Source of the DNA: an uncultured bacterium
GTDB taxonomy: Bacteria; Desulfobacterota_D; UBA1144; Nemesobacterales; UBA2774
Length of the DNA: 64,000 nt
Reading direction: 5' to 3'
Assembly (NCBI GenBank): GCA_963705505.1
Contig: CAVPJU010000010.1
Coordinates: forward strand, 704,001 to 768,000
Both the position numbers and the translations under genes were made by a program. The notes below the pieces were generated by a model. The model did no database searches. It saw nothing but the letters and a program-made list of their open reading frames with translations, and was not told where the DNA came from. Shown here one piece after another: positions 1,990 to 16,284 of the stretch (positions are counted from its first letter, which is position 1; the number at the start of each line of letters is the position of its first letter).

Positions 1990-2079
1990 TGGAGTTAAGG
2001 GCTGAAATATGAGAATTTGCAACTTTAGTGGGATTTCAAGGTTTATACACATATAAGGCCGGATTTATTGGAGAGAGTA

Positions 2080-2439
2080 ATGAAAAAAATAATATTACCT
2101 ATTTTAATCGTGATTGCTCTTATGATAGCCGCTCCTGCTTCAAGCCTGGCCCGTAACGGACACGGGTATCACGGACAGGGATATTACGGAAACGGATACC
2201 GCGGACAGGGATATCATGGACAGGGATACTATAATCACGGCTACGGGCATCATTACAATCACGGTTCTAATTTCACAACCAGCTTCTTTTTCGGGGCACC
2301 CTATGCATATTACCCCAGTCCCTATGTATATTATGCGCCGCCTCCGCCGCCAGTCGTTTATTACGCGCCCCCTCCTGTGTACTACGCGCCCCCTCCCCCT
2401 CCGTCGGGACAGCTATTCTTCGGATTCACAGTAGATTGA
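2080..2439 (+). CDS. Exported low-complexity Gly/Tyr/His-repeat and polyproline protein
   Basis: Signal peptide MKKIILPILIVIALMIAAPASSLA; GYxGQ repeats; three YYAPPP units. ATG 2080 follows GGAGAG; TTG 2068 is the alternative start. Confidence 0.75.
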   Translation: MKKIILPILIVIALMIAAPASSLARNGHGYHGQGYYGNGYRGQGYHGQGYYNHGYGHHYNHGSNFTTSFFFGAPYAYYPSPYVYYAPPPPPVVYYAPPPVYYAPPPPPSGQLFFGFTVD

Positions 2440-3359: not shown

Positions 3360-3668
3360 CTATCCATATTTTTCCGTAAACTGCTCATCGGTCATGCTCA
3401 GGTAGATTATGCCTTCGATAAAAGCTACAAGTGCCGGTATGAGAGTCCAGCAGAACAATATATATACTATTCCCCAGCCGACGCGACCTAAATAGAACTT
3501 GTGTATCCCTATCCCGCCCAGCAAAAGCGCGAAAATCGCGGCAGTTACCCTGTTCCTTCCGCTCGGTGATCTCATTCCGGGCTGCCTTACGCCGCATTTA
3601 GGGCATATTTCAGCCTTGATATCAATTTGTTCGCCGCAATTTACGCAATATTTACGATCTTCGGACAT
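3360..3668 (-). CDS. Zinc-ribbon + TM2 domain membrane protein
   Basis: CVNCG...CPKCG ribbon; ALLLGGIGIHKFYLG TM2 signature. GGAGGA precedes ATG 3668. Confidence 0.88.
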   Translation of the reverse strand: MSEDRKYCVNCGEQIDIKAEICPKCGVRQPGMRSPSGRNRVTAAIFALLLGGIGIHKFYLGRVGWGIVYILFCWTLIPALVAFIEGIIYLSMTDEQFTEKYG

Positions 3669-3762
3669 TTCAATCGAATCCTCCATGAGTGTGTCGGAAA
3701 AACAACAGATTATCGCATCATTCGCGGCCCGCTGTCAACGGTGAACTAATAAATTAATAAAG

Positions 3763-4758
3763 CTAGCTCGGTTTATGCATGGGAGGAGCCATAAATTCCG
3801 GGCCAACGGGGTCCTTAATCGTATCTTCGAGAATTTTATCGATGGCGTCGAAATCATCTTTGTTTAAAGACCACCCCAGCATACCATCGATAGGCTGAAG
3901 CTGGTCGGGACGCCTTGCTCCCCAGAGCGCGATGTGATCCTGCGCCCTGTCGAGTATCCAGCGAATCGCGAGGTGTATCACGTGCTTTCCGTATTTCTTT
4001 TGGGCGTACCGATCCAGTTCTTCTACAGCTTTTAAATACTGCCCGAACCTGGGCTGCTTGAATTTGGGATCGGCTTTCCGTATATCGTCCCCTTCGAACT
4101 TCGTATCCCCCTTCATCCTTCCGCTCAAAAGGCCGCGGCAGATCGCCCCGTAAAATAGCATGGTGATCCCGCTCGCATCGCAGTAAGGAAGAACATCGCG
4201 CTCGATTACCCGCTCGAACAAATTGAATGGGGGCTGGCATATGTGGAGCGGCACTTTACTCCTGAATATATCCATCTGCTCGGTCGAATAATTGCTCACC
4301 CCGATCGCCCTGATTTTTCCAGTTTGATAAAGCTCGTTCATTGCCTGAGCGGCTTCTTCGATCGGGGTATCGAAATCGGGCCAGTGTACCTGGTATATGT
4401 CTATATAATTCGTGCGGAGTCTCTCGAGAGAATCCTCGACCTCTTTCATTATGCGATTCCTTGTAGAGTTGCGGTACACCTTTCCGCTTGTCCAGTCGAG
4501 ACCCACCTTGGTAGCGATGACGACCTTTTCCCTGTCTCCGTACTCGGTCAAAGCCTTTCCCACAATCTCCTCAGACCTCCCGAAACCGTAGATCGCAGCC
4601 GTATCTACGAGGTTAATTCCCTTACCGAGGGCGGCTAGAATAGTATCTACGGACTCGCGCTCCTCGCTGCCTCCCCAGAGCCAACCCCCGATAGCCCAGC
4701 AGCCGAGGCCTATACGCGAGGATACGATATCCGTCCCTTTTATCCTGATATATTCCAT
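3763..4758 (-). CDS. Aldo/keto reductase
   Basis: IGLGCWAIGG, DTAAIYG, IATK, YIDIYQVHWPD, IGVSNY. GAGGAGG precedes ATG 4758. Confidence 0.94.
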   Translation of the reverse strand: MEYIRIKGTDIVSSRIGLGCWAIGGWLWGGSEERESVDTILAALGKGINLVDTAAIYGFGRSEEIVGKALTEYGDREKVVIATKVGLDWTSGKVYRNSTRNRIMKEVEDSLERLRTNYIDIYQVHWPDFDTPIEEAAQAMNELYQTGKIRAIGVSNYSTEQMDIFRSKVPLHICQPPFNLFERVIERDVLPYCDASGITMLFYGAICRGLLSGRMKGDTKFEGDDIRKADPKFKQPRFGQYLKAVEELDRYAQKKYGKHVIHLAIRWILDRAQDHIALWGARRPDQLQPIDGMLGWSLNKDDFDAIDKILEDTIKDPVGPEFMAPPMHKPS

Positions 4759-4967
4759 GCTGCAGTACCTCCTCACATTATTGACTTTTCATGCCGGATT
4801 CAGGCGTCCCTCATAATGGTATGCCGTTTATAATCTGTATTTCACAACTATCTTACCCGTCCGATAATCCTTGTCCCATCCATACTTAACACCCGGATCA
4901 ATTTTCATGTCAAAGTTAAAACTTATTTGACTTCGGATTATTCAGCTATAAGATATGATATAGGATC

Positions 4968-5357
4968 ATGAAGAGATTTTTTAGCCTTTTTCTAGTCGTC
5001 AATATACTTGCATGCTACGGCGGGTTCTACCGGAATACATTCGCTTCGACCGATCCGGCGCGTGTAAAGCCGATGTCCGGCTGCCACTTGATGAATCACG
5101 AAAACAATAAACCCGCAAACGAGAATTCTTCCCGAATCATTAACGATTCGGCCAATACGGATAGTCCTTGCTGTTCCGAGAGCCTGACAAACATACACCC
5201 TGACCTCAACGCTAAGATTGAAATAGTATCTATCGATAGAACACAACCGGCAATACTCAATAACGGTAAAGACCATCTTAAAAAACAACGGGATAACTCC
5301 CTCAGAGAGCATGACCCGCCTGATTTACAGATTTCCAATTCCACCTTTTTACTATAA
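4968..5357 (+). CDS. Exported leader protein upstream of the heavy-metal RND operon (CH, CC and C-terminal HDPP motifs)
   Basis: N-terminal hydrophobic signal; SGCHLMNH; PCCSES; ends HDPPDLQISNSTFLL; co-oriented 129 nt before the cusC-like gene. Confidence 0.72.
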   Translation: MKRFFSLFLVVNILACYGGFYRNTFASTDPARVKPMSGCHLMNHENNKPANENSSRIINDSANTDSPCCSESLTNIHPDLNAKIEIVSIDRTQPAILNNGKDHLKKQRDNSLREHDPPDLQISNSTFLL

Positions 5358-5486
5358 TTTTGTCCTTTCCATCTGATCCCCGCACTGCCCGACGATAAGT
5401 CATGGGCAGCGAGGGATTCTTGCGTTTTCTACAACCATACATCTAAAAAGTTTTAGAGGTGTTCCCCTCTTACCGGAGGCAAATAT

Positions 5487-6764
5487 ATGAAAGAGATATG
5501 CGCAACGTTATTTCTAATTTTATTTTTAACGCAAAGCTTATCCGCGCAGCAAGTCGAGACGCTGGATTCTTTAGTAAACGAGGCGCTTCGAAATAATCCC
5601 GAGATAAAAGCGGCGAAAGCGAAGTGGGGAGCTTCCACGAAGCGTCCCACACAGGAAGGGACCCTGCCCGACCCGATGATAGGAATAGATTGGCAGAACG
5701 TGAGCTTCGACAGCATAACGCTCGACGAGGAATCGAACAGCATGTTGAAATTCTCATTCGAACAGGAAATCCCTTTTCCCGGAAAGCTCTCATCGAAGGA
5801 AAAAATAGCGGCCAGAGAATCCGAAGCCGAGGAGAAATCCTCACAGGCAACGGAGAGGAGAGTTATCGCCGATCTCAAAGCCGCCTATTACGACTGGTAT
5901 CTTTCGAAAAAAGCCATAGAGATCACCGAAAAGAACAAGAAGCTTCTCGAAAAGTTCACCAGGATCGCGGAAGTGAAGTACGAAGTGGGAAAGGGCATAC
6001 AGCAGGACGTGCTGAAAGCCCAGGTTGAGACATCGAAGATCATCGAGGAGCTCGAAGTCTTCAAGCAGAAAAAAGAGATAATCGAGGCGAGGATAAAAAG
6101 TATGCTCAACCGTCCGCAGGATTCCCCGCTAGGCAATCCCGAGGACATAGAAAAAACACCTTTGACCATGACTTCCGAGGAAGTGAGCAAGATCACAAAG
6201 GAAAACGCTCCGCTCCTAGCCATGAAAGAGCGTGAGATAGCGAGGGGAGAAGAGGCTCTGAATCTCGCACAAAAGGAGCTTTATCCCGATTTCGTCGTGG
6301 GAGCCTCTCCGGGAATAATGGGTAGAGCGGGGAACGGCGTTGACGGAATATGGGAGGTATCTCTCGGATTAAAAGTGCCGCTTTATTTCTGGAGAAAGCA
6401 GAAGCCGGGAATCGAGGAAGCGGCGCTCGAATTAAAAGGGGCGCAGGAGGAGTACGGCGCCACGAATCAGGAGCTCAGCTTTAACGTGAAGGAGAGTTAT
6501 CTCAACGCAAGGACATCCGAGAACCTCATGAACCTCTATCAGAAGGGCATAATCCCCCAGTCGAGGCTCGCGCTCGAATCGGCGATTTCCGGTTACCAGG
6601 TGGGGGCGGTCGATTTCCTCACCCTGCTGGACGACCTGATGTCATTATTCAGCTTCGAGCTCGAGTACCATAGACAGCTCGCCGAGTATGAGAAGGCCTT
6701 GGCGAGGATCGAGGAGTTATCAGGCGTTGAATTGACACATCAATCCGAGAGCAAAGGAGAATAA
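5487..6764 (+). CDS. TolC-family outer-membrane factor of heavy-metal efflux system (CusC-like)
   Basis: Signal peptide; ALRNNPEI, LPDP, QEIPFPGKL, YQVGAVDFLTLL; first gene of the RND operon. Confidence 0.9.
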   Translation: MKEICATLFLILFLTQSLSAQQVETLDSLVNEALRNNPEIKAAKAKWGASTKRPTQEGTLPDPMIGIDWQNVSFDSITLDEESNSMLKFSFEQEIPFPGKLSSKEKIAARESEAEEKSSQATERRVIADLKAAYYDWYLSKKAIEITEKNKKLLEKFTRIAEVKYEVGKGIQQDVLKAQVETSKIIEELEVFKQKKEIIEARIKSMLNRPQDSPLGNPEDIEKTPLTMTSEEVSKITKENAPLLAMKEREIARGEEALNLAQKELYPDFVVGASPGIMGRAGNGVDGIWEVSLGLKVPLYFWRKQKPGIEEAALELKGAQEEYGATNQELSFNVKESYLNARTSENLMNLYQKGIIPQSRLALESAISGYQVGAVDFLTLLDDLMSLFSFELEYHRQLAEYEKALARIEELSGVELTHQSESKGE

Positions 6765-6766
6765 AG

Positions 6767-8233
6767 ATGAAGGGAAAGAAAGGAGTAAAAATTGTTTCGG
6801 TTTTAATCCTCCTGGCAGCCGCTTTTTTCGCCGCTTACAAATACGGCTACAGGATACCGGTGCTTAAGGAAATCCCGTTTTTCTCCCAGGGACACGAGCA
6901 CCGGTGGCGCCCTGTCCTTACAAAGGACGGAGAGATCGACTACTGGACATGCGCAATGCACCCTTCGGTGAGGATGAAGGAGCCCGGCCACTGCCCGATA
7001 TGCGGAATGGAGCTCGTTCCGGTCATGAAAAAAACGGGTCCGGAGACCGAACCCAACTCGGGTAATCAGGAGAAAGAAACCACGGCGGAATCCGAGAGCT
7101 CAACCGGAACGGGGACCATGGACCAAAGTATGCCCGGGATGGAAATGCCTGCACCTGCACCCGAACCCGGAAAAGGGGAATCCCGGTCCCAGTTCACAGT
7201 CAGCCCGGAGAGGCAGCAGTTAATAGGGGTTAAAACAGAGCCCGTAGCTATGCGCTCTATGGACAAATCGATCCGGACCGCGGGCAGAGTCACTCTCGAT
7301 GAAACTAAAATCACACAAATAAACACAAAATTCAGCGGGTGGATAGATAAGCTATACGTCGACTATACGCTTCAGCACGTTAACAAGGGAGACCCGCTAT
7401 TTTCCATATACAGCCCGGAGCTAGTCTCGACAGAGCAGGAATACCTGCTCGCGCTCCGCTCAAACGAGATACTATCCGACAGCGAGTTCCCGGAGATCTC
7501 GGGCGGGGCTAATTCGCTCCTCGATGCAACCAAGAAACGGCTCCAATTATGGGATATATCGGAAAGTCAGATAAGGGAGCTTGCGAAATCCGGGAAAGTA
7601 AAGGAAAGCCTCATCATATACTCCCCCGTCTCAGGCGCAGTGATCGAGAAAAATGCATTTCAGAATATGTACGTTGAGCCCAACACCGCTCTCTATAAGA
7701 TCGCCGACCATTCGAACGTTTGGGTCGAGGTCGATATATACGAGAACGAGATACCCCTCGTTAAGTTGGGAGACCACGCGGTGATGACGTTGGAATCGCT
7801 TCCCGGCGAGGAGTTCCACGGGAAAGTCACGTTCATTCCGCCTCACCTCGACATGAAGACGAGGACTGCAAAGGCGCGTCTCGAATTCCCTAACGCCGAC
7901 ATGAAACTGCTCCCTGAAATGTACGCCGATGTGAACATCGATATTCCACTCGGAGAGAAATTGACAATACCCGAGTCCGCAGTGCTGCGGACGGGGGCGC
8001 AGGACATCGTTTTCGTAGATAAGGGGGAGGGGAAGATGGAGATAAAGAGAGTGGAGCTCGGGCAGAAATCCGACGGTTATTATGAAGTGCTCAAGGGATT
8101 AAGTGAAGGCGAGAAGGTAGTATCGAGGGCGAATTTCCTCATCGATTCGGAAAGCAAGATTCAGGCTGCCGTCGCCTCTTGGAATGAAGGCGACAAAGAG
8201 GGCGAAAGCATGAAATCCCACGAAGGACATTAA
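6767..8233 (+). CDS. cusB: CusB-like periplasmic adaptor with N-terminal heavy-metal-binding domain
   Basis: WTCAMHP..EPGHCPICGMEL domain; GWIDKLY, YSPELVS, LLPEMY, FLIDSES; ends HEGH. Confidence 0.88.
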   Translation: MKGKKGVKIVSVLILLAAAFFAAYKYGYRIPVLKEIPFFSQGHEHRWRPVLTKDGEIDYWTCAMHPSVRMKEPGHCPICGMELVPVMKKTGPETEPNSGNQEKETTAESESSTGTGTMDQSMPGMEMPAPAPEPGKGESRSQFTVSPERQQLIGVKTEPVAMRSMDKSIRTAGRVTLDETKITQINTKFSGWIDKLYVDYTLQHVNKGDPLFSIYSPELVSTEQEYLLALRSNEILSDSEFPEISGGANSLLDATKKRLQLWDISESQIRELAKSGKVKESLIIYSPVSGAVIEKNAFQNMYVEPNTALYKIADHSNVWVEVDIYENEIPLVKLGDHAVMTLESLPGEEFHGKVTFIPPHLDMKTRTAKARLEFPNADMKLLPEMYADVNIDIPLGEKLTIPESAVLRTGAQDIVFVDKGEGKMEIKRVELGQKSDGYYEVLKGLSEGEKVVSRANFLIDSESKIQAAVASWNEGDKEGESMKSHEGH

Positions 8234-8325: not shown

Positions 8326-11300
8326 ATGATAGATAAAATCATAGAGTATTCGGCAAAGAACAGGTTTCTGACAATCACCCTTATTGCTTTTCTCGCCGTC
8401 TGGGGATACTGGGCGATGAAGAATACTCCGCTCGACGCCATACCCGACCTGTCGGACGTTCAGGTCATAGTGTACACGGACTGGGAGGGGAGAAGCCCGG
8501 ACTTAATAGAAGACCAGATTACATACCCTATCGTTACAAGCATGATAGCCGCTCCTAAAGTGAAATACGTGAGAGGCCAGTCGATGTTCGGCACGTCGCT
8601 CGTCTATGTAATATTCGAGGACGGGACGGACATATATTGGGCAAGGAGCCGGGTGCTCGAATATTTAAACGAGGTCAGGGGAAAACTCCCCGAAGGAATC
8701 AATCCGACTCTCGGCCCGGACGCCACGGGAGTCGGGTGGGTTTTCGAATACGCGCTCGTGGATGAATCCGGCAAACATGATCTGGCCGATCTCCGGACAT
8801 TTCAGGACTGGTATCTCAGATACTGGCTCGAATCCGTCCCCGGCGTCGCGGAGGTCGCAAGCGTGGGGGGATTCGTCAAACAATATCAGGTCGAGATCGA
8901 CCCGAATAAACTCATAGCCTACGACATACCCATAAACAAGGTGATAGAAGCCGTGAGATCGAGCAATAACGATGTCGGAGGCAGGGTCGTGGAATTCGGA
9001 TCGACCGAATATTTCGTAAGGGGGAGAGGCTACATAAAATCCGTAGAGGACATTGAGAAGGTCATGGTGGGAACGAACGGAAACGGGACGCCCGTTTACG
9101 TTCGCGATATCGCGAACGTGCAGCTCGGTCCCGATATCAGGAGAGGCGTTGCCGAGCTTGACGGAAAAGGCGAGACGGTCGGGGGGATCGTAGTTATGCG
9201 CCACGGCGAAAACGCTCTCGAAGTGATAGAAAAAGTGAAAGAGAAGCTCGAAGACATAAAGCCGTCGCTGCCCGAGGGAGTTAAAATCGTAACCACTTAT
9301 GACCGCTCGGACCTTATCCTGCGCGCAATAGGGACGCTTAAGGGCACTCTCATTGAAGAGATGATCATCGTGAGCATAGTCATAATCGTATTCCTGCTCC
9401 ATTTCAGGAGCGCGATAATACCCATAGTCTCGATCCCTATCGGGGTCTTGATGGCGTTCATCCCCATGTACTACATGCATCTCAACTCGAACATCATGTC
9501 ACTCGGAGGGATCGCCATTGCCATAGGGGCAATGGTCGATGCCTCGATAGTGATTATCGAGAACGTGCATAAGAAGCTGGAGAAATGGCAGTCAGAGGGC
9601 GAGAAGTTAAAAAGAGCCGACGTTATTCTGGATGCTATGAAGGAAGTCGGGAGACCCGTCTTCTTTTCCCTGCTTGTAATAACTGTTTCATTCCTTCCGG
9701 TATTTACACTCGAGTATCAGGAAGGGAGGCTTTTCAAGCCCCTCGCGTTCACGAAAACCTTCGCGATGTTCTTTTCGGCACTCCTCGCCATAACCATAAC
9801 TCCCGCTCTTATAGCCCTCCTTCTGAGGGGGAAAGTAAAGCCCGAGGAAAAGAATCCAATAAGCAGATTCCTGATAGGGCTGTACGGCCCGGTCGTAAGC
9901 TTCGTGCTCCGTTTCAAAAAGACCGTTTTAGTAATATCAGTCGTAATTCTCGTACTGACCGTCTTCCCATTTCTGAAGCTGGGCTCCGAATTCATGCCCC
10001 CGCTTAACGAGGGGACAATCCTTTACATGCCGACTGCCGTGCCCGGGATGTCGATCACCGAGGCATCCAAGATCCTCCAGATACAGGACAAAATGCTGAT
10101 GAAATTCCCGGAGGTTGAAAGGGTTTTCGGAAAAATAGGGCGTTCCGAATCGCCGACTGACTCAGCCCCTCTCAGCATGGTGGAAACGGTCGTCATTTTG
10201 AAGCCGGAGGACAAGTGGCGCGCAGGAATGACATGGGAAAAACTCGTATCGGAAATGAATCAATCCGTAAAATTCCCAGGCATGGCAAACATATTCTGGA
10301 TGCCAATTCAGACGAGGACGGAGATGCTCACGTCGGGCTTCAGAAGCAACCTCGGCATAAAGGTGTTTGGCCCCGACCTTGGCGAGATAGAAAAAATAGC
10401 CGTGGAGATTGAAAGCGTGCTCGCGAAAACTCCGGGGACAAGGAGCGCGTTTGCGGAAAGGATAACTGGAGGATACTTCCTCGATTTCGAGATAGACCGG
10501 GAAAAGGTCGCCAGATACGGTCTCACTGTAGGGGAAGTGGAGGATGTTATAGAAACCGCCATAGGCGGAAAAAACATATCGCAAACAGTCGAGGGACAGG
10601 AGAGATACCCGATAAACGTCAGGTATCCGAGAGAATTGAGAACCGATCTGGACAAACTGGAGAGAGTGCTCGTCGCGACTCCGTCTGGGGCGCAGGTCCC
10701 GATCTCACTTCTCGCTAAAATCAGCTTCAATTCCGGCCCGCCGGAAATCAGAAACGAGAACGGACAGAAAGTCGGCTATATCTTTGTCGACGTCGAGGGA
10801 AAAGACTACGAAGGCTATGTAAAAGGGGCGAAGAAAATAATTCAGGAGGGAGTCAAACTGCCCCCGGGCTACTATCTGGAATGGGCGGGACAGTATGAAT
10901 ACCTCCTGAGGGTCAAGGAAAGACTAAAGTACATACTGCCTCTTACACTATTCATCATATTCCTCCTCCTCTATCTGAATTTCAAATCAATCACCGAGTC
11001 ACTGATCGTTCTATTCTCAGTCCCGTTCTCGCTTGTCGGGAGCATATGGCTCCTGTATCTGCTCGGCTACAACATGAGCATAGCGGTTTGGGTCGGAATC
11101 ATAGCGCTCGCAGGACTCGCCGCGGGGACGGGGGTAGTGATGATTATCTATCTCGACGAGGCTTATGAGAGGAGGAGGAAGAGAAACGAGATGAATACGG
11201 AGGGTGATCTGCACAGCGCCATAACTGAAGGTGCGGTACAGAGGGTAAGGCCCAAGATGATGACTGTTGCGACAATGACCCTGGGTCTCCTTCCCCTTAT

Positions 11301-11463
11301 GTGGAGCGCCGGCACGGGGGCAGACATGATAAAGAGGATCGCGGCTCCGATGGTGGGGGGACTCATAACCTCGACGATACTCACGCTCATAATCATTCCA
11401 GTGATATACGCCATATGGAAAGGAGGCAGTTTGTCGAAAAGCACGAATGAACATACAGAATAA
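8326..11463 (+). CDS. cusA: CusA/SilA-type Cu(I)/Ag(I) RND efflux permease
   Basis: PLDAIPDLSDVQV, LGPDATGVGWV, GAMVDA, GSEFMPPLNEGTILYMP, APLSMVET, RVRPKMMT; 1045 aa. Confidence 0.95.
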   Translation: MIDKIIEYSAKNRFLTITLIAFLAVWGYWAMKNTPLDAIPDLSDVQVIVYTDWEGRSPDLIEDQITYPIVTSMIAAPKVKYVRGQSMFGTSLVYVIFEDGTDIYWARSRVLEYLNEVRGKLPEGINPTLGPDATGVGWVFEYALVDESGKHDLADLRTFQDWYLRYWLESVPGVAEVASVGGFVKQYQVEIDPNKLIAYDIPINKVIEAVRSSNNDVGGRVVEFGSTEYFVRGRGYIKSVEDIEKVMVGTNGNGTPVYVRDIANVQLGPDIRRGVAELDGKGETVGGIVVMRHGENALEVIEKVKEKLEDIKPSLPEGVKIVTTYDRSDLILRAIGTLKGTLIEEMIIVSIVIIVFLLHFRSAIIPIVSIPIGVLMAFIPMYYMHLNSNIMSLGGIAIAIGAMVDASIVIIENVHKKLEKWQSEGEKLKRADVILDAMKEVGRPVFFSLLVITVSFLPVFTLEYQEGRLFKPLAFTKTFAMFFSALLAITITPALIALLLRGKVKPEEKNPISRFLIGLYGPVVSFVLRFKKTVLVISVVILVLTVFPFLKLGSEFMPPLNEGTILYMPTAVPGMSITEASKILQIQDKMLMKFPEVERVFGKIGRSESPTDSAPLSMVETVVILKPEDKWRAGMTWEKLVSEMNQSVKFPGMANIFWMPIQTRTEMLTSGFRSNLGIKVFGPDLGEIEKIAVEIESVLAKTPGTRSAFAERITGGYFLDFEIDREKVARYGLTVGEVEDVIETAIGGKNISQTVEGQERYPINVRYPRELRTDLDKLERVLVATPSGAQVPISLLAKISFNSGPPEIRNENGQKVGYIFVDVEGKDYEGYVKGAKKIIQEGVKLPPGYYLEWAGQYEYLLRVKERLKYILPLTLFIIFLLLYLNFKSITESLIVLFSVPFSLVGSIWLLYLLGYNMSIAVWVGIIALAGLAAGTGVVMIIYLDEAYERRRKRNEMNTEGDLHSAITEGAVQRVRPKMMTVATMTLGLLPLMWSAGTGADMIKRIAAPMVGGLITSTILTLIIIPVIYAIWKGGSLSKSTNEHTE

Positions 11464-11540: not shown

Positions 11541-11963
11541 ATGAAGACCAAAACATCAATAGTTAAAGCATTAACGATTTTCAGCTTTTGCCTGATTGCG
11601 GTGTCTATGCTCTACAACGAGCCGGCAACTGCAGACAATACGAATCGAAACAGCCCCGACAAGCAGTCCCAGCCGGTGATTTCCCCGATAGATTCTAAAT
11701 ACGTCTGCATGATAAACAACCAATCTTTCAATAAGGAGCAAATCCCCGTCGAGGTGGACGGCAAGACTTACTACGGCTGCTGCCAGATGTGCGAAGCCAA
11801 GCTGAAATCGGACCCGGGCAGCCGTACGGCAGTCGATCCCGTAAGCGGTAATGACGTTGACAAGGCTACGGCAATAATCGGAGCGGCGCCGGACGGGACT
11901 GTTTATTACTTTGAGAGCGAACAGAACCTTAAAGCCTTCAACAGTAATTCGAACTCACAATAA
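11541..11963 (+). CDS. Exported TRASH/YHS-like metal-binding protein, copy 1
   Basis: Signal peptide; YVCM...VDGKTYYGCCQMC; DPVSG..VDK..YYFES. Confidence 0.8.
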   Translation: MKTKTSIVKALTIFSFCLIAVSMLYNEPATADNTNRNSPDKQSQPVISPIDSKYVCMINNQSFNKEQIPVEVDGKTYYGCCQMCEAKLKSDPGSRTAVDPVSGNDVDKATAIIGAAPDGTVYYFESEQNLKAFNSNSNSQ

Positions 11964-12689: not shown

Positions 12690-13064
12690 ATGAAGAAGTC
12701 GATGCTACTGTTAGCAGCTTTCACGATAGCTCTGCTGGTCTTATCTCTTAATAGAGAAACCCGGACGAGCGCATCGGAGGAAGTGGACATTACCGTGCTG
12801 ATTGAAACGGCGAAAACACCTCAAGACCATCTTAAGATCGCAGAATACTACGAAGAGCAGGCGGTCATGATGGAAAAGCAGGCTACTCTGCACGAGTCAA
12901 TGGCTAAGGCGTACCAGAGTGGGAAGATGACTGGTATGTCGACACACTGCGATAAGCTGGTGAAGGATTCAAAGGCATCCGCCGAGCAGTATAAAGCTAT
13001 GGCGGCAGAGCACAAGAAGATGGCTCAGGATATGCAGAGTCAGAATTCTCAGCAGCCTCAGTAA
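12690..13064 (+). CDS. Exported helical His/Met/Cys protein
   Basis: Signal peptide; AKTPQDH..AEYYE, LHESMA, MSTHC, MAAEHKKMA; GGGGGTG SD. Confidence 0.75.
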   Translation: MKKSMLLLAAFTIALLVLSLNRETRTSASEEVDITVLIETAKTPQDHLKIAEYYEEQAVMMEKQATLHESMAKAYQSGKMTGMSTHCDKLVKDSKASAEQYKAMAAEHKKMAQDMQSQNSQQPQ

Positions 13065-14071: not shown

Positions 14072-14491
14072 ATGAATACCAGGATTTTCAGTATAAGCTC
14101 TTTAATGGCTTTCAGTCTGTGTTTAATTGCGGCTCTTACGCTATTCCCGAATGAGCCGAGGGCGCAGAACAGCGGGACCGATAACACTCAGGCAGTTACC
14201 TCACCGGGACTCACCCAGGTGGAATCCAAATACGTGTGCATGGTCACAAACGAGCTCAACGCTAAGGAGCAGATACCCGTGGTGGTCGACGGCAAAACGT
14301 ACTACGGCTGCTGCCACATGTGCGAAGCCAAGCTGAAAGAGGACCCGGCGAGCCGGATGGCGACCGACCCCGTAAGCGGCCGGCAGGTGGATAAATCTAC
14401 CGCCGTAATCGGAGCCGCGCCCGACGGGAAGGTCTATTACTTTGAAAGCGCGGAAGACCTGAAGGCTTTCAATAGCAGCCCCAACCAATAA
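14072..14491 (+). CDS. Exported TRASH/YHS-like metal-binding protein, copy 2
   Basis: Paralogue of 11541: YVCM...VDGKTYYGCCHMC, DPVSG..VDK..YYFES. Confidence 0.8.
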   Translation: MNTRIFSISSLMAFSLCLIAALTLFPNEPRAQNSGTDNTQAVTSPGLTQVESKYVCMVTNELNAKEQIPVVVDGKTYYGCCHMCEAKLKEDPASRMATDPVSGRQVDKSTAVIGAAPDGKVYYFESAEDLKAFNSSPNQ

Positions 14492-14535: not shown

Positions 14536-16284
14536 TCATGCGACGACTATGCGGTTCCTGCCCTGGGCTTTTGCTTTGTATAGAGCCCTGTCAGCAGATT
14601 CCAGAAGCAGCTCCGCGGAAGTACCGTGCTCGGAAAAAACGACTACGCCCATCGACACCTCGACCGAGCTGACAAAGCTCCCGCGGTGACGGACGCGGAC
14701 CCTCTTTATTTCCTCGTGGAGCTGCTCAGCCCTCCTGCAGGTATTTTCGAGGGACGACCCGGGAAGTATGAGGACGAATTCCTCTCCGCCGTAACGGCAT
14801 GCGATGTCCTCGCGCCGGATACGGTCTCTAAAAAAGTCGCCGATGCTGCGCAGCAGCATATCGCCCGCCGCATGGCCGTAAGCGTCATTAAACTGCTTGA
14901 AGTGGTCTATATCGACCATGATGAGACCGAGCGGCTCCTTATTACGCGCTACCCTGCTGATTTCCCTCTTGAGCGTCTCTTCCATATACCGCCTGTTGAA
15001 TAAACCGGTCAGAGAATCATAGATCGCGTAGTTCTGGAGGGCCTCATGCTGCTTTATATTCCCCAGAGCGAGGGCCGTGAGTTTGGCCATCGTGGAAACA
15101 ATATGGCGGTTATAGTTATTTTCGTGCTCGCCGTCGGTTCCCTCGACAATGTCGGCGCCGCTCTGCAGATACAACAGACCGAGCGTCTTACTCCTCGCCA
15201 GCATCGGAGCGCAAAAATAATTGATTTTCTCCGATTCGTTTAAGTGCTGACAGTAAAGCTCCGTAGGCGCGTTATGCGCCGAGTGCAGCCTTCCGAGCCT
15301 GAGCGCCCAGCATCTGTCGGGAAGGAATTCGCGCTCGCTATTTATCTTATCCCCCCAGGCCGAGACGCATTCGAGTATGTTCAGAACATCGTTATAGATA
15401 AAGAGCGCTCCCGAATTTCCGGAAAATAATTTATTACTGTAATTCGTGACTATCGTATAAACCTCTTCTTCGTCATGCGAGGCCTGGAGTAATTCATCCA
15501 TCTCACAGAGCTGAATCAGCTTCCTGTTTTGCTCTTCGAGTTTTTTAACAAGGTCCCGGATGTCTTTTCGTATACTGGAGCTGTTCTCCTCGTCGTACTT
15601 AACCTCTATATCGCGGAGAATTTTCTCGCCGAAATCCGCTTCACCTCCGGTCAGATTATAAATAGATTCCGGCGCGCCGCTCTTTCCGGTTCCGTTCTCC
15701 TCATGCTTTATCTCTTCGCTTTTTTTAAATTCCAGAACCTGCTCACCTGCATCAGTGATACCGCGTCTCTGCTCGAGACCGAGTATCACCTTACGGGCTA
15801 CGGTCTGCAGCAGGGAGACCTGTTCGAAGCTGAGGTCTTTGGGCTGATAGCCCAATACGCATAGAGAACCTATCCTGTGGCCGCTCCGGTCGATGAGCGG
15901 TATGCCCGCGATGAAATTGATTTCGGGGTGTGAGCTTAGGAAGGGGTTCAGCCTCGTTCTTTCATCCTGAAGGGGGCTTGTAATAGCGAGCAATTCGTCA
16001 GGGTTATTTATAACGTAGGTGCCGAACGACCTGTCGCGCGGCACTTCCCTGATATCGGTGCCTATGCCTATTACCGACTTGAACCATTCCCTGTTCTCAT
16101 CGACAAAGCTGATTAGCGCAATCGGGGTCTTGCAGATATATCCGGCAAGCCTCGCAAGCTCATCGAAGCTCTCTTCCGGTTCGGTATCCAGAATATTATA
16201 ATCAAGGAGTGCTCTGAACCGCTCCACTTCATCATCATGAAGCTTCATGCTCGCATTCCTGACTTTATCGAAATCTCTGTTCAT
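14536..16284 (-). CDS. GAF-GAF-GGDEF diguanylate cyclase
   Basis: N-terminal GAF (YNILDTEPEESFD), second GAF (CWALRLGR), DSLTGLFNRR, RRED I-site, intact GGEEF. Confidence 0.93.
   Translation of the reverse strand: MNRDFDKVRNASMKLHDDEVERFRALLDYNILDTEPEESFDELARLAGYICKTPIALISFVDENREWFKSVIGIGTDIREVPRDRSFGTYVINNPDELLAITSPLQDERTRLNPFLSSHPEINFIAGIPLIDRSGHRIGSLCVLGYQPKDLSFEQVSLLQTVARKVILGLEQRRGITDAGEQVLEFKKSEEIKHEENGTGKSGAPESIYNLTGGEADFGEKILRDIEVKYDEENSSSIRKDIRDLVKKLEEQNRKLIQLCEMDELLQASHDEEEVYTIVTNYSNKLFSGNSGALFIYNDVLNILECVSAWGDKINSEREFLPDRCWALRLGRLHSAHNAPTELYCQHLNESEKINYFCAPMLARSKTLGLLYLQSGADIVEGTDGEHENNYNRHIVSTMAKLTALALGNIKQHEALQNYAIYDSLTGLFNRRYMEETLKREISRVARNKEPLGLIMVDIDHFKQFNDAYGHAAGDMLLRSIGDFFRDRIRREDIACRYGGEEFVLILPGSSLENTCRRAEQLHEEIKRVRVRHRGSFVSSVEVSMGVVVFSEHGTSAELLLESADRALYKAKAQGRNRIVVA

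Follow-up and report, generated by a model that had tools for sequence, protein, structure and literature searches.

A candidate metal-sensing leader peptide upstream of a Cus-type efflux operon in an uncultured bacterium of the Desulfobacterota_D lineage

We analyzed a stretch of 64,000 nucleotides from an uncultured bacterium assigned by GTDB to Desulfobacterota_D (GenBank assembly GCA_963705505.1, contig CAVPJU010000010.1, positions 704,001 to 768,000 of the forward strand); this whole stretch is referred to as the window, and positions are counted from its first letter. A small open reading frame (ORF) with a 129-amino-acid product (P0001), here called the leader, is the first gene of an operon that continues with cusC-like, cusB-like, and cusA-like genes of an efflux pump of the resistance-nodulation-division (RND) type (Table 1). 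An earlier reading made without database searches (the sequence-only reading) had proposed that the leader senses metal through ribosome arrest and controls the pump in the manner of Bordetella CruR and Rhodobacter CutF. Sequence patterns and analogy with those systems lead us to lean, if not strongly, toward the view that the leader is a cis-acting, arrest-type, metal-sensing peptide of the CutF/CruR kind.

The leader begins with MKR, 17 hydrophobic residues, and then TFA|S, and its TAA stop codon (5355-5357) is followed by a spacer of 129 nt before the next gene. The N-termini of its relatives follow the same sequence pattern of K/R, a hydrophobic core, and then T/S/A-x-A, with K or R in the n-region of 94 of 97 family sequences. 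Cys16 lies inside this signal-like hydrophobic N-terminus, in a CY[GS]G motif (Cys16-Tyr-Gly-Gly, 5013-5024, in the window). Downstream of it are SGCHLMNH, PCC (residues 67-69), and REHDPP, in which the HDPP codons occupy 5310-5321 and the second proline is followed by an 11-residue tail. The export-signal-like N-terminus, SGCHLMNH, PCC, and REHDPP with its 11 following residues, together with the ORF length and the 129-nt gap, had been listed in the sequence-only reading and were confirmed at their positions. Among the 56 non-overlapping ORFs of the window (18,641 amino acids, with 50 PP dipeptides), the pattern [RH][AGDS]PP occurs a single time, in the leader ORF.

The identity of the pump as Cus-type, which had also been claimed, held up under alignment. 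The RND subunit scored 1200 bits against E. coli CusA versus 574 bits against the divalent-cation pump ZneA, and methionine is kept at the three positions aligned with residues 580, 630, and 679 of the CusA chain, which we take to be the Cu/Ag site. The adaptor matched the NCBIfam CusB subfamily with an E-value of 4e-43, under that model's cutoff. Judged by these alignments, the Cus-type label is justified. A Pfam scan of 14 neighboring proteins identified no DNA-binding regulator, in agreement with the earlier statement that the island has no regulator gene, and no CusF homologue.

Table 1. Features of the leader and the pump operon in the window.
Feature	Position	Strand	Basis
Sigma-70-like promoter (TTGACT, 16-nt spacer, TAAGAT)	4927..4954	+	Consensus scan
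Leader ORF (P0001, 129 aa), first gene of operon	4968..5357	+	ATG start
Sec-type signal-like N-terminus, residues 1-26	4968..5045	+	Read from sequence
SGCHLMNH, residues 37-44 (conserved residue, Cys39)	5076..5099	+	Alignment
Cys68-Cys69 doublet	5169..5174	+	Alignment
C-rich, G-poor stretch (C>G bubble), candidate Rho loading site	5296..5403	+	Base composition
REHDPP, residues 113-118 (HDPP core, candidate arrest motif)	5304..5321	+	Family conservation
Conserved 11-residue tail DLQISNSTFLL and TAA	5322..5357	+	Family conservation
Stem-loop SL1 in spacer	5376..5417	+	RNAalifold consensus
Predicted anti-Shine-Dalgarno hairpin (CCUCU 5466-5470 with cusC Shine-Dalgarno GGAGG 5475-5479)	5465..5479	+	Predicted, 6/6 short-spacer loci
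cusC-like outer-membrane factor (OEP/TolC family)	5487..6764	+	Pfam OEP, E 4e-48
cusB-like adaptor with N-terminal heavy-metal-binding domain	6767..8233	+	Pfam HlyD_D23, E 5e-80; HMBD, E 1.6e-11
cusA-like RND transporter	8326..11463	+	NCBIfam CusA/CzcA family, 1230 bits

P0001 had zero matches in Pfam, NCBIfam, and PDB sequences, and the CusF-type chaperone family (PF11604) was among the Pfam/NCBIfam families that it did not match. A word-indexed search identified 22 relatives out of 24 candidates; an exhaustive search of cluster representatives identified 32 at E ≤ 0.001, from which a 1201-aa repetitive protein was dropped; and a profile search, with E up to 0.1 allowed, identified 87 out of 619 candidates, the weakest at E 2.7e-10. 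None of the relatives reached by the profile search from the leader family carried a Pfam domain. Family members are 88-162 aa long, every named relative is annotated as a "hypothetical protein," and the organism names that are given are those of metagenome-assembled genomes (MAGs) of Thermodesulfobacteriota or Deltaproteobacteria. A scan of species-representative genomes gave 111 pattern matches, seven of which encode a relative (loci L001-L007); these loci belong to MAGs of Thermodesulfobacteriota, Dadabacteria, "uncultured delta proteobacterium," or "uncultured bacterium." In the window and in all seven genome loci, the leader stands ahead of OEP, CusB, and CusA genes on the same strand, and the spacer is 119-131 nt in five of the seven. 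The OEP, CusB, and CusA genes are split into several ORFs in L003 (7477-10281) and L007 (7817-13657), which is probably due to frameshift or assembly errors rather than gene decay.

In a 43-sequence alignment of the family reaching down to 24% identity, C16, C39, C68, C69, P117, and P118 are the sole invariant columns; in a 35-sequence set, the invariant columns are C68, C69, P117, and P118. Counted over 111 distinct family proteins, PP is kept in 110 (the exception is PT) and CC in 109 (the exceptions are one internal deletion and one YC), and the number of residues after PP is exactly 11 in 110/110. Position -2 of PP is His in 107 of 110 sequences and Arg in two, position -1 is Asp in 101, Gly in 6, Ser in 2, and Tyr in 1, and Asp directly follows PP in 103. 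The distance from the last Cys of CC to the first Pro is 45-49 residues in 108/108 sequences (48 in 40 and 49 in 51), and of 103 sequences counted, all but 3, which have an extra, nearer Cys, place Cys39 27-34 residues ahead of CC. The tail has the consensus D-[LI]-[QY]-[ILV]-S-[NV]-S-[ST]-F-L-[LI], based on the commonest residues at each position. The sequence-only reading had named CH, CC, and xxPP, with their spacing, as the features whose conservation should be checked: CC, PP, Cys39, and the spacing are conserved, but the His after Cys39 is present in only 68 of the 103 sequences counted (Asp or Glu in 30, Tyr in 4, Arg in 1). On these counts, the "CH" motif is better read as Cys plus a ligand-type residue. 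Taken as a whole, the outcome of this conservation check favors the reading of the leader as a metal sensor.

Based on a codon alignment of the window and the seven genome loci, the ratio of nonsynonymous to synonymous changes (pN/pS) over the entire ORF is 0.53; by region, it reaches 0.41 in the signal part, 0.76-0.80 in the two linkers, and 0.24 in the last 21 codons. In the 11-residue tail it is 0.29, with synonymous changes present, and synonymous sites are near saturation ahead of PP. Because of this pattern, we read the peptide as being under selection, most strongly at its C-terminus. A chance ORF is ruled out by the homologues and by this selection, and by the same sequence measures the leader is a genuine conserved gene. 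In all 8 loci, the GAT TTA codons right after PP (5322-5327) are invariant, whereas Asp and Leu are encoded variably at other positions of the tail; a constraint acting on the codons or on the RNA at the predicted stall site could be the reason. AlphaFold2, run with the 43-sequence alignment, gave a mean predicted local distance difference test (pLDDT) score of 55.2 and a predicted template modeling (pTM) score of 0.17, with only the N-terminal helix above 70. Ligand-type residues that are few in number and set at constant distances from a C-terminal PP, on a chain that otherwise drifts and is predicted to be unfolded, have the look of a nascent-chain sensor and not of a domain.

The TTGAC of the promoter's -35 element is invariant in all 8 aligned loci and is followed by an AT-rich -10-like block. 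The promoter spacer of 16-17 nt, with no evident operator, fits an ordinary sigma-70 promoter and not one of the MerR type. The -10 element lies 13 nt from the start codon in the window and 9 nt in L006 and L007, and no conserved Shine-Dalgarno (SD) sequence is visible for the leader; the transcript probably starts ~6-8 nt ahead of the ATG, with a very short 5' untranslated region.

At the other end of the ORF, the C>G stretch begins just before PP and continues over the stop codon into the spacer, with a maximum of 34.6% C and 10.3% G in the 78-nt window from 5313. A C-G difference of at least 0.22 is reached by ~1% of plus-strand windows, and the enrichment occurs at the same position in 6/6 short-spacer loci. 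SL1 starts a fixed 18 nt past the stop codon; its helices 1-2 show 76-83% pairing, with both sides changed in 4 of the pairs. When the 18 pairs of SL1 and the anti-SD hairpin are taken together, pairing holds in 81% of cells, versus 33-49% in slid controls. As a base rate for the anti-SD element, the window contains 216 GGAGG sites, 11 of them with CCTC upstream, and 69 SD-led ORFs, of which 4 have it. An intrinsic terminator after SL1 was rejected, as the U-rich tract found in the window, L001, and L004 is lost in L002, L003, and L005; a terminator-like scan match at 5409-5423 is weak (2 found versus 0.9 expected). An anti-anti-SD switch formed by the 3' arm of SL1 and the anti-SD was likewise rejected, its G-rich arm being unconserved in L002 and L003, as was an anti-SD copy in the SLRE codons, where the nucleotides are unconserved.

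In Bordetella pertussis, the DUF2946 protein CruR (Bp2923) is exported and has little structure; it carries a CXXC motif (C90, C93) and RAPP at residues 139-142. The Cys-RAPP spacing is kept in >2000 proteins and matters for regulation, which operates via Rho-dependent termination, and CruR has a C>G bubble at the ORF end and in its 162-nt spacer (PMC9426467). The leader resembles CruR as an upstream ORF with a product that is predicted to be exported and poorly structured, in its C>G bubble at the ORF end and in the spacer, in the long spacer itself (129 nt in the window versus 162 nt), in its four-residue basic-x-P-P motif, and in the distance of 48 residues from the last Cys to the first Pro (C93 and P141 in CruR). 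It differs in that RAPP lies 3 residues from the C-terminus of CruR, whereas 11 residues follow PP in the leader. DUF2946 (PF11162; CruR, CutF) has CxxC and RAPP, whereas the leader family has an adjacent CC with a separate lone Cys and H-[D/G/S]-P-P, and the Pfam model is not matched. In addition, CruR controls an importer and copper relieves its arrest, whereas a pump needs the opposite logic.

Toeprinting of CruR placed the first Pro of its motif in the P site and the second in the A site (PMC12992588); by analogy, the predicted stall in the leader would have Pro117 in the P site and Pro118 in the A site. According to the same article, RxPP supports arrest when x is G, A, S, D, or P, random screens for arrest yielded HGPP, and proteomes contain fewer RDPP, RSPP, and HGPP motifs than expected (PMC12992588). 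As far as sequence and analogy can indicate, H-[D/G/S]-P-P is within known arrest-prone sequence space. The strongest XPP stalls occur when the X codon begins with G (PMC11611912), and X is Asp or Gly in 107 of 110 family members; no passage on the strengths of DPP or PPD motifs was found in PMC11611912. The RAPP-type arrest peptides (ApdA, ApdP, SecM-like; PMC12992588, PMC10987492) share with the leader a C-terminal x-x-P-P, and its -1 position takes D, G, or S as in the permissive RxPP motif. They differ in having Arg where the leader has His and a Sec/YidC component rather than a metal pump downstream, and the leader has a long tail after PP.

In Rhodobacter capsulatus, binding of copper to the exported Cys motif of CutF leads to stalling at PPP, which exposes the cutO ribosome-binding site otherwise hidden in a stem-loop (PMC9973294; preprint 10.1101/2025.02.05.636593). 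The leader shares with CutF and CutF-like proteins a length of <150 aa (here 129), a Cys motif, PP no more than 15 residues from the C-terminus, and the leading place in a same-strand metal operon with a short spacer (129 nt, and 119-131 nt in 5 other loci), and its N-terminus resembles their Sec-type signal; an anti-SD hairpin over the next gene's ribosome-binding site, as in CutF, is predicted in the window. It departs from CutF in having HDPP with CC and a lone Cys instead of PPP with CxxxC, and no sequence relationship is detectable; the leader's PP is also ~155 nt from the SD, beyond direct melting. CutF-like proteins occur in Pseudomonadota or Bacteroidota, whereas the leader family occurs in Thermodesulfobacteriota and Dadabacteria MAGs. 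By its sequences, the family appears to follow the architectural rules of CutF-like proteins and not the sequence definition of DUF2946.

In the report by Ozturk et al. 2023, the commonest downstream neighbors of CutF-like proteins are OEP genes of RND systems (CusC/CzcC/SilC), and the network labels CusD and SilD of Cupriavidus metallidurans (PMC9973294). The sequence-only reading had presented the leader as an undescribed system with a different motif acting on an efflux pump. HDPP does differ from the known motifs; however, efflux-pump targets, including those of CusD and SilD, had already been reported for CutF-like ORFs in that article, and the claim of an undescribed system could not be upheld. 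SilD and CusD of C. metallidurans CH34 (silDCBA, cusDCBAF) resemble the leader as small ORFs directly upstream of a Cu/Ag RND outer-membrane gene. On pMOL30, SilD (L012, 20023-20418, minus strand) stops 72 nt ahead of silC. Its signal-like N-terminus is followed by CxxxCH, by PRPPPRP, and finally by a hydrophobic tail of 12 residues with CC; if SilD is a guide, a tail after PP may be common in pump-associated leaders. The cusD gene is transcribed from an RpoD promoter that lies 20 bp upstream, whereas cusCBA stays off in the absence of metal; two-component genes are absent, and the authors call CusD uncharacterized (PMC9045368). Unlike a family connection, the shared position comes with no detectable sequence similarity for SilD, and both proteins are called uncharacterized, so they come without a tested mechanism.

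CzcI (PF28244) of C. metallidurans is a small exported Cys/His protein directly ahead of an RND outer-membrane gene, czcC, and in this it is like the leader; it is described as a periplasmic "quencher" of Czc activity (PMC9045368). It differs in lacking PP, its C-terminus being RAPDRP, a degenerate RAPP-like string, and in being described as a periplasmic actor. Membership of the leader in the DUF2946, CzcI, SilD, or CusF families by sequence was not supported, matches being absent or sub-threshold.

If the leader acts as an arrest peptide of the CutF/CruR kind, it would be transcribed from the sigma-70-type promoter without a nearby regulator gene, and its N-terminal signal would target the nascent peptide to the Sec translocon. 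Elongation would pause at His115-Asp116-Pro117-Pro118, an RxPP/HGPP-like motif. During the pause, CC would be 48 residues from the peptidyl-transferase center, just out of the exit tunnel, and Cys39 would be ~78 residues out, across the translocon or at or beyond the membrane, perhaps together with Cys16, a possible additional metal ligand retained at the membrane. The length of the pause would change when the leader thiols bound Cu(I)/Ag(I). A ribosome at PP would cover approximately nucleotides 337-369 of the ORF, midway along the C>G stretch. Only ~40 nt of RNA free of structure would then remain ahead of SL1, which would impede Rho loading and let transcription continue into cusCBA. Once the leader was completed and the ribosome gone, the entire C>G stretch would be bare, and Rho might stop transcription before cusC. 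The anti-SD hairpin would additionally hold basal translation of cusC low. The polarity expected for a pump is that metal would lengthen the stall and switch the pump on, as in CutF.

We hold the Rho route and this polarity with much less confidence than the general class. Because the PP codons are ~155 nt from the cusC ribosome-binding site, direct melting of the hairpin by the stalled ribosome, as in the CutF model, would be inapplicable; a CruR-type Rho readout would fit better. The analogy with CruR and CutF that the sequence-only reading drew is borne out for the export-like signal, the Cys/His motifs, the absence of a predicted fold, the C-terminal PP, the first place in the operon, and the missing regulator; stalling and cis-action are what we infer from it.

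Several observations weigh against this account, beginning with the ~155-nt distance itself, which separates the leader from the CutF prototype. His stands in place of the Arg of RAPP, and Arg is called irreplaceable in SecM (PMC12992588). No relationship to a known family was recovered: 0/35 relatives reached the threshold for DUF2946 (2/35 were weak, the best at E 0.018), the hhalign probability was 2.5% for CzcI, over 15 columns of signal peptide only, and it was 0.33% for SilD. The RNA features are also less distinctive when set against their background. The window contains 72 regions with a C-G difference of at least 0.20, the single-sequence fold has an unremarkable z-score of -1.43, and 12/500 and 15/500 shuffles matched the observed pairing and covariation, respectively, on only 6 sequences; RNA-level support for the hairpins is modest. 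The genomic context is known at 8 loci only, all from related lineages, and in two of these the leader does not directly adjoin cusC. In L006, a LIC_10421-like gene (3454-3879), related to the window ORF at 12690-13064, lies between leader and cusC, and in L007 (7358-7641), ~285 nt with a short remnant start of a LIC_10421-like gene separate the two. Finally, the 11-residue tail is strongly conserved in both sequence and length. The invariance of Cys16, inside the signal region, likewise does not fit readily.

The tail calls for separate consideration. Arrest at PP alone cannot explain it, because the tail residues are not yet made when the ribosome is at PP; its conservation suggests a role of the finished peptide or of the termination step. 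One possible explanation is a finished-chain function, such as docking or a hydrophobic C-terminal degradation tag. It is also possible that a second pause occurs at termination, with the last ~19 conserved residues filling the tunnel, or that the geometry of stall, stop codon, and SL1 requires a set distance between them, which the tail would provide.

The first of these possibilities leads to an alternative in which the leader is a finished, exported, small metal-binding protein that acts in trans in the periplasm, as a chaperone, a metal buffer, or a CzcI-like "quencher," with a tail that docks on the pump or serves as a degradation tag and a PP that is structural. We think this unlikely, though far from negligible, and such a function could coexist with a leader role. 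A tail conserved at the protein level and invariant in length points to a completed-chain function, the Cys/His motifs are typical metal ligands, CzcI provides a described periplasmic "quencher" (PMC9045368), and the lack of CusF among the scanned neighbors leaves a chaperone slot open. In an atlas search by features, which returned only unnamed or CzcI-type neighbors, the nearest clusters included ones auto-named "Copper resistance protein" (0.95) and CzcI (0.93); these are leads only. However, a predicted fold is absent (pLDDT 55, pTM 0.17), and only four Cys and two Pro are invariant. The linkers are near-neutral, yet their spacing to PP is fixed, which argues for a nascent-chain ruler and not a domain, and similarity to CzcI and matches to CusF or other Pfam families are absent.

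A second alternative is that the leader is a conserved exported or membrane-anchored peptide, such as a tethered redox/thiol peptide or a lipoprotein, that is unrelated to pump control and linked to cusCBA by shared ancestry. In the window, the genes upstream of the leader encode an aldo-keto reductase (on the opposite strand), a TM2 protein, an HAD hydrolase, and a CDF transporter, and most loci share the upstream aldo-keto reductase, HAD, and CDF genes. As all 8 contexts are from Thermodesulfobacteriota/Dadabacteria-type MAGs, this synteny could be inherited. An invariant Cys16 at the end of the hydrophobic N-terminus is in keeping with an anchored peptide, and one nearest atlas cluster was auto-named "Lipoprotein." Nevertheless, we regard this alternative as improbable: in L006 and L007 the upstream neighbors differ and the linkage to the pump stays, and the motif set and Cys-PP spacing match those of metal-sensing leaders. 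A lipoprotein was rejected because the residue before Cys16 is Leu in 51 sequences, Ile in 19, Val in 15, Ala in 8, Phe in 3, and Thr in 1 (n = 97), which does not agree with the G/A/S of the canonical lipobox.

We also give little credence to the alternative that cusCBA is controlled purely by RNA or by a protein factor, such as a spacer RNA that senses metal or a two-component system encoded at an unlinked site, with translation of the leader being irrelevant. A regulator could be encoded elsewhere in the genome, and the spacer has conserved hairpins. The closest plasmid-borne pump of the same phylum, on pPRO1 of Pelobacter propionicus (L008, 1-2295; OEP 33% identical), has in the upstream slot a kinase-like gene annotated as "ATP-binding protein" and a sigma-54-dependent regulator instead of a leader, from which it follows that transcription factors can do this job; compared with the window, this looks like a swap of control modules. 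Against such control, the peptide is under purifying selection, the promoter combines a consensus -35 element and a 16-17-nt spacer with no evident operator, and Rfam, searched over 4700-5700 at E ≤ 1, gave two chance-level matches only, far under gathering scores. In other plasmid-borne OEP relatives, the upstream slot is occupied by a P-type ATPase (on a Legionella plasmid) or by a short hypothetical ORF on the opposite strand (on a Burkholderia plasmid), and no DUF2946-annotated gene was found beside the plasmid-borne OEP relatives.

The remaining genes of the metal island lie on both sides of the operon. Downstream of the pump are two YHS-domain proteins, a Met-rich LTXXQ-like protein, a LIC_10421-like protein, and a cytochrome c. 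The two exported YHS/TRASH-domain proteins (11541-11963 and 14072-14491, plus strand) are closely alike and flank the block of the other three genes; they are likely periplasmic copper-handling accessories. A GAF-GAF-GGDEF diguanylate cyclase (14536-16284, minus strand), the sole signaling protein nearby, converges on the end of the island. On the upstream side, the product of the ORF at 2068-2439 (plus strand) is small and looks exported; it contains a His/Gly/Tyr-rich repeat (GHGYHGQGYYGNGY...), and its C-terminus (YYAPPPPPVVYYAPPPVYYAPPPPP) is polyproline/Tyr-rich. ORFs resembling this one occur in the same place in L002, L003, L004, and L007. Based on its context adjoining the CDF transporter, this protein may be metal-related.

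The kind of switch that we propose for the leader, an arrest-type peptide controlling a metal operon in cis, is already known and introduces no new principle. What is new is the family of sequences with its HDPP motif and its conserved tail of 11 residues, as well as its lineage, Thermodesulfobacteriota and Dadabacteria MAGs. We found no paper in which such a leader was tested on an RND pump, only bioinformatic statements, in a search that covered few subscription journals.

A more specific proposal, which we regard as quite unlikely, is that the leaders are an independently evolved arrest family, with HDPP and an obligatory 11-residue tail, that switches the Cus pump on by a route unlike that of either prototype. 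Metal at the just-emerged CC and the exported Cys39 (possibly also Cys16) would prolong the stall, the ribosome would stand within a Rho loading site with insufficient free C-rich RNA left for Rho, and the tail would set this geometry or act in a further step, for instance through a pause at the termination stage or as a degradation tag in the periplasm. If true, this would be the first worked example of nascent-chain metal sensing on an RND efflux pump, and outside Pseudomonadota.

An oxidase and an importer are the only targets for which CutF/CruR-type leaders have been tested to date, and RND pumps are their commonest predicted targets. With its clean signal of four Cys, two Pro, a CruR-like distance, and an invariant tail length, the leader offers a compact and easily mutated test case. 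The family could address whether metal is read on the periplasmic or the cytoplasmic side, and whether the readout is Rho termination or exposure of a ribosome-binding site. It would also extend this class of leaders to uncultured Thermodesulfobacteriota and Dadabacteria, in which ~100 "hypothetical" proteins could then be given a name.

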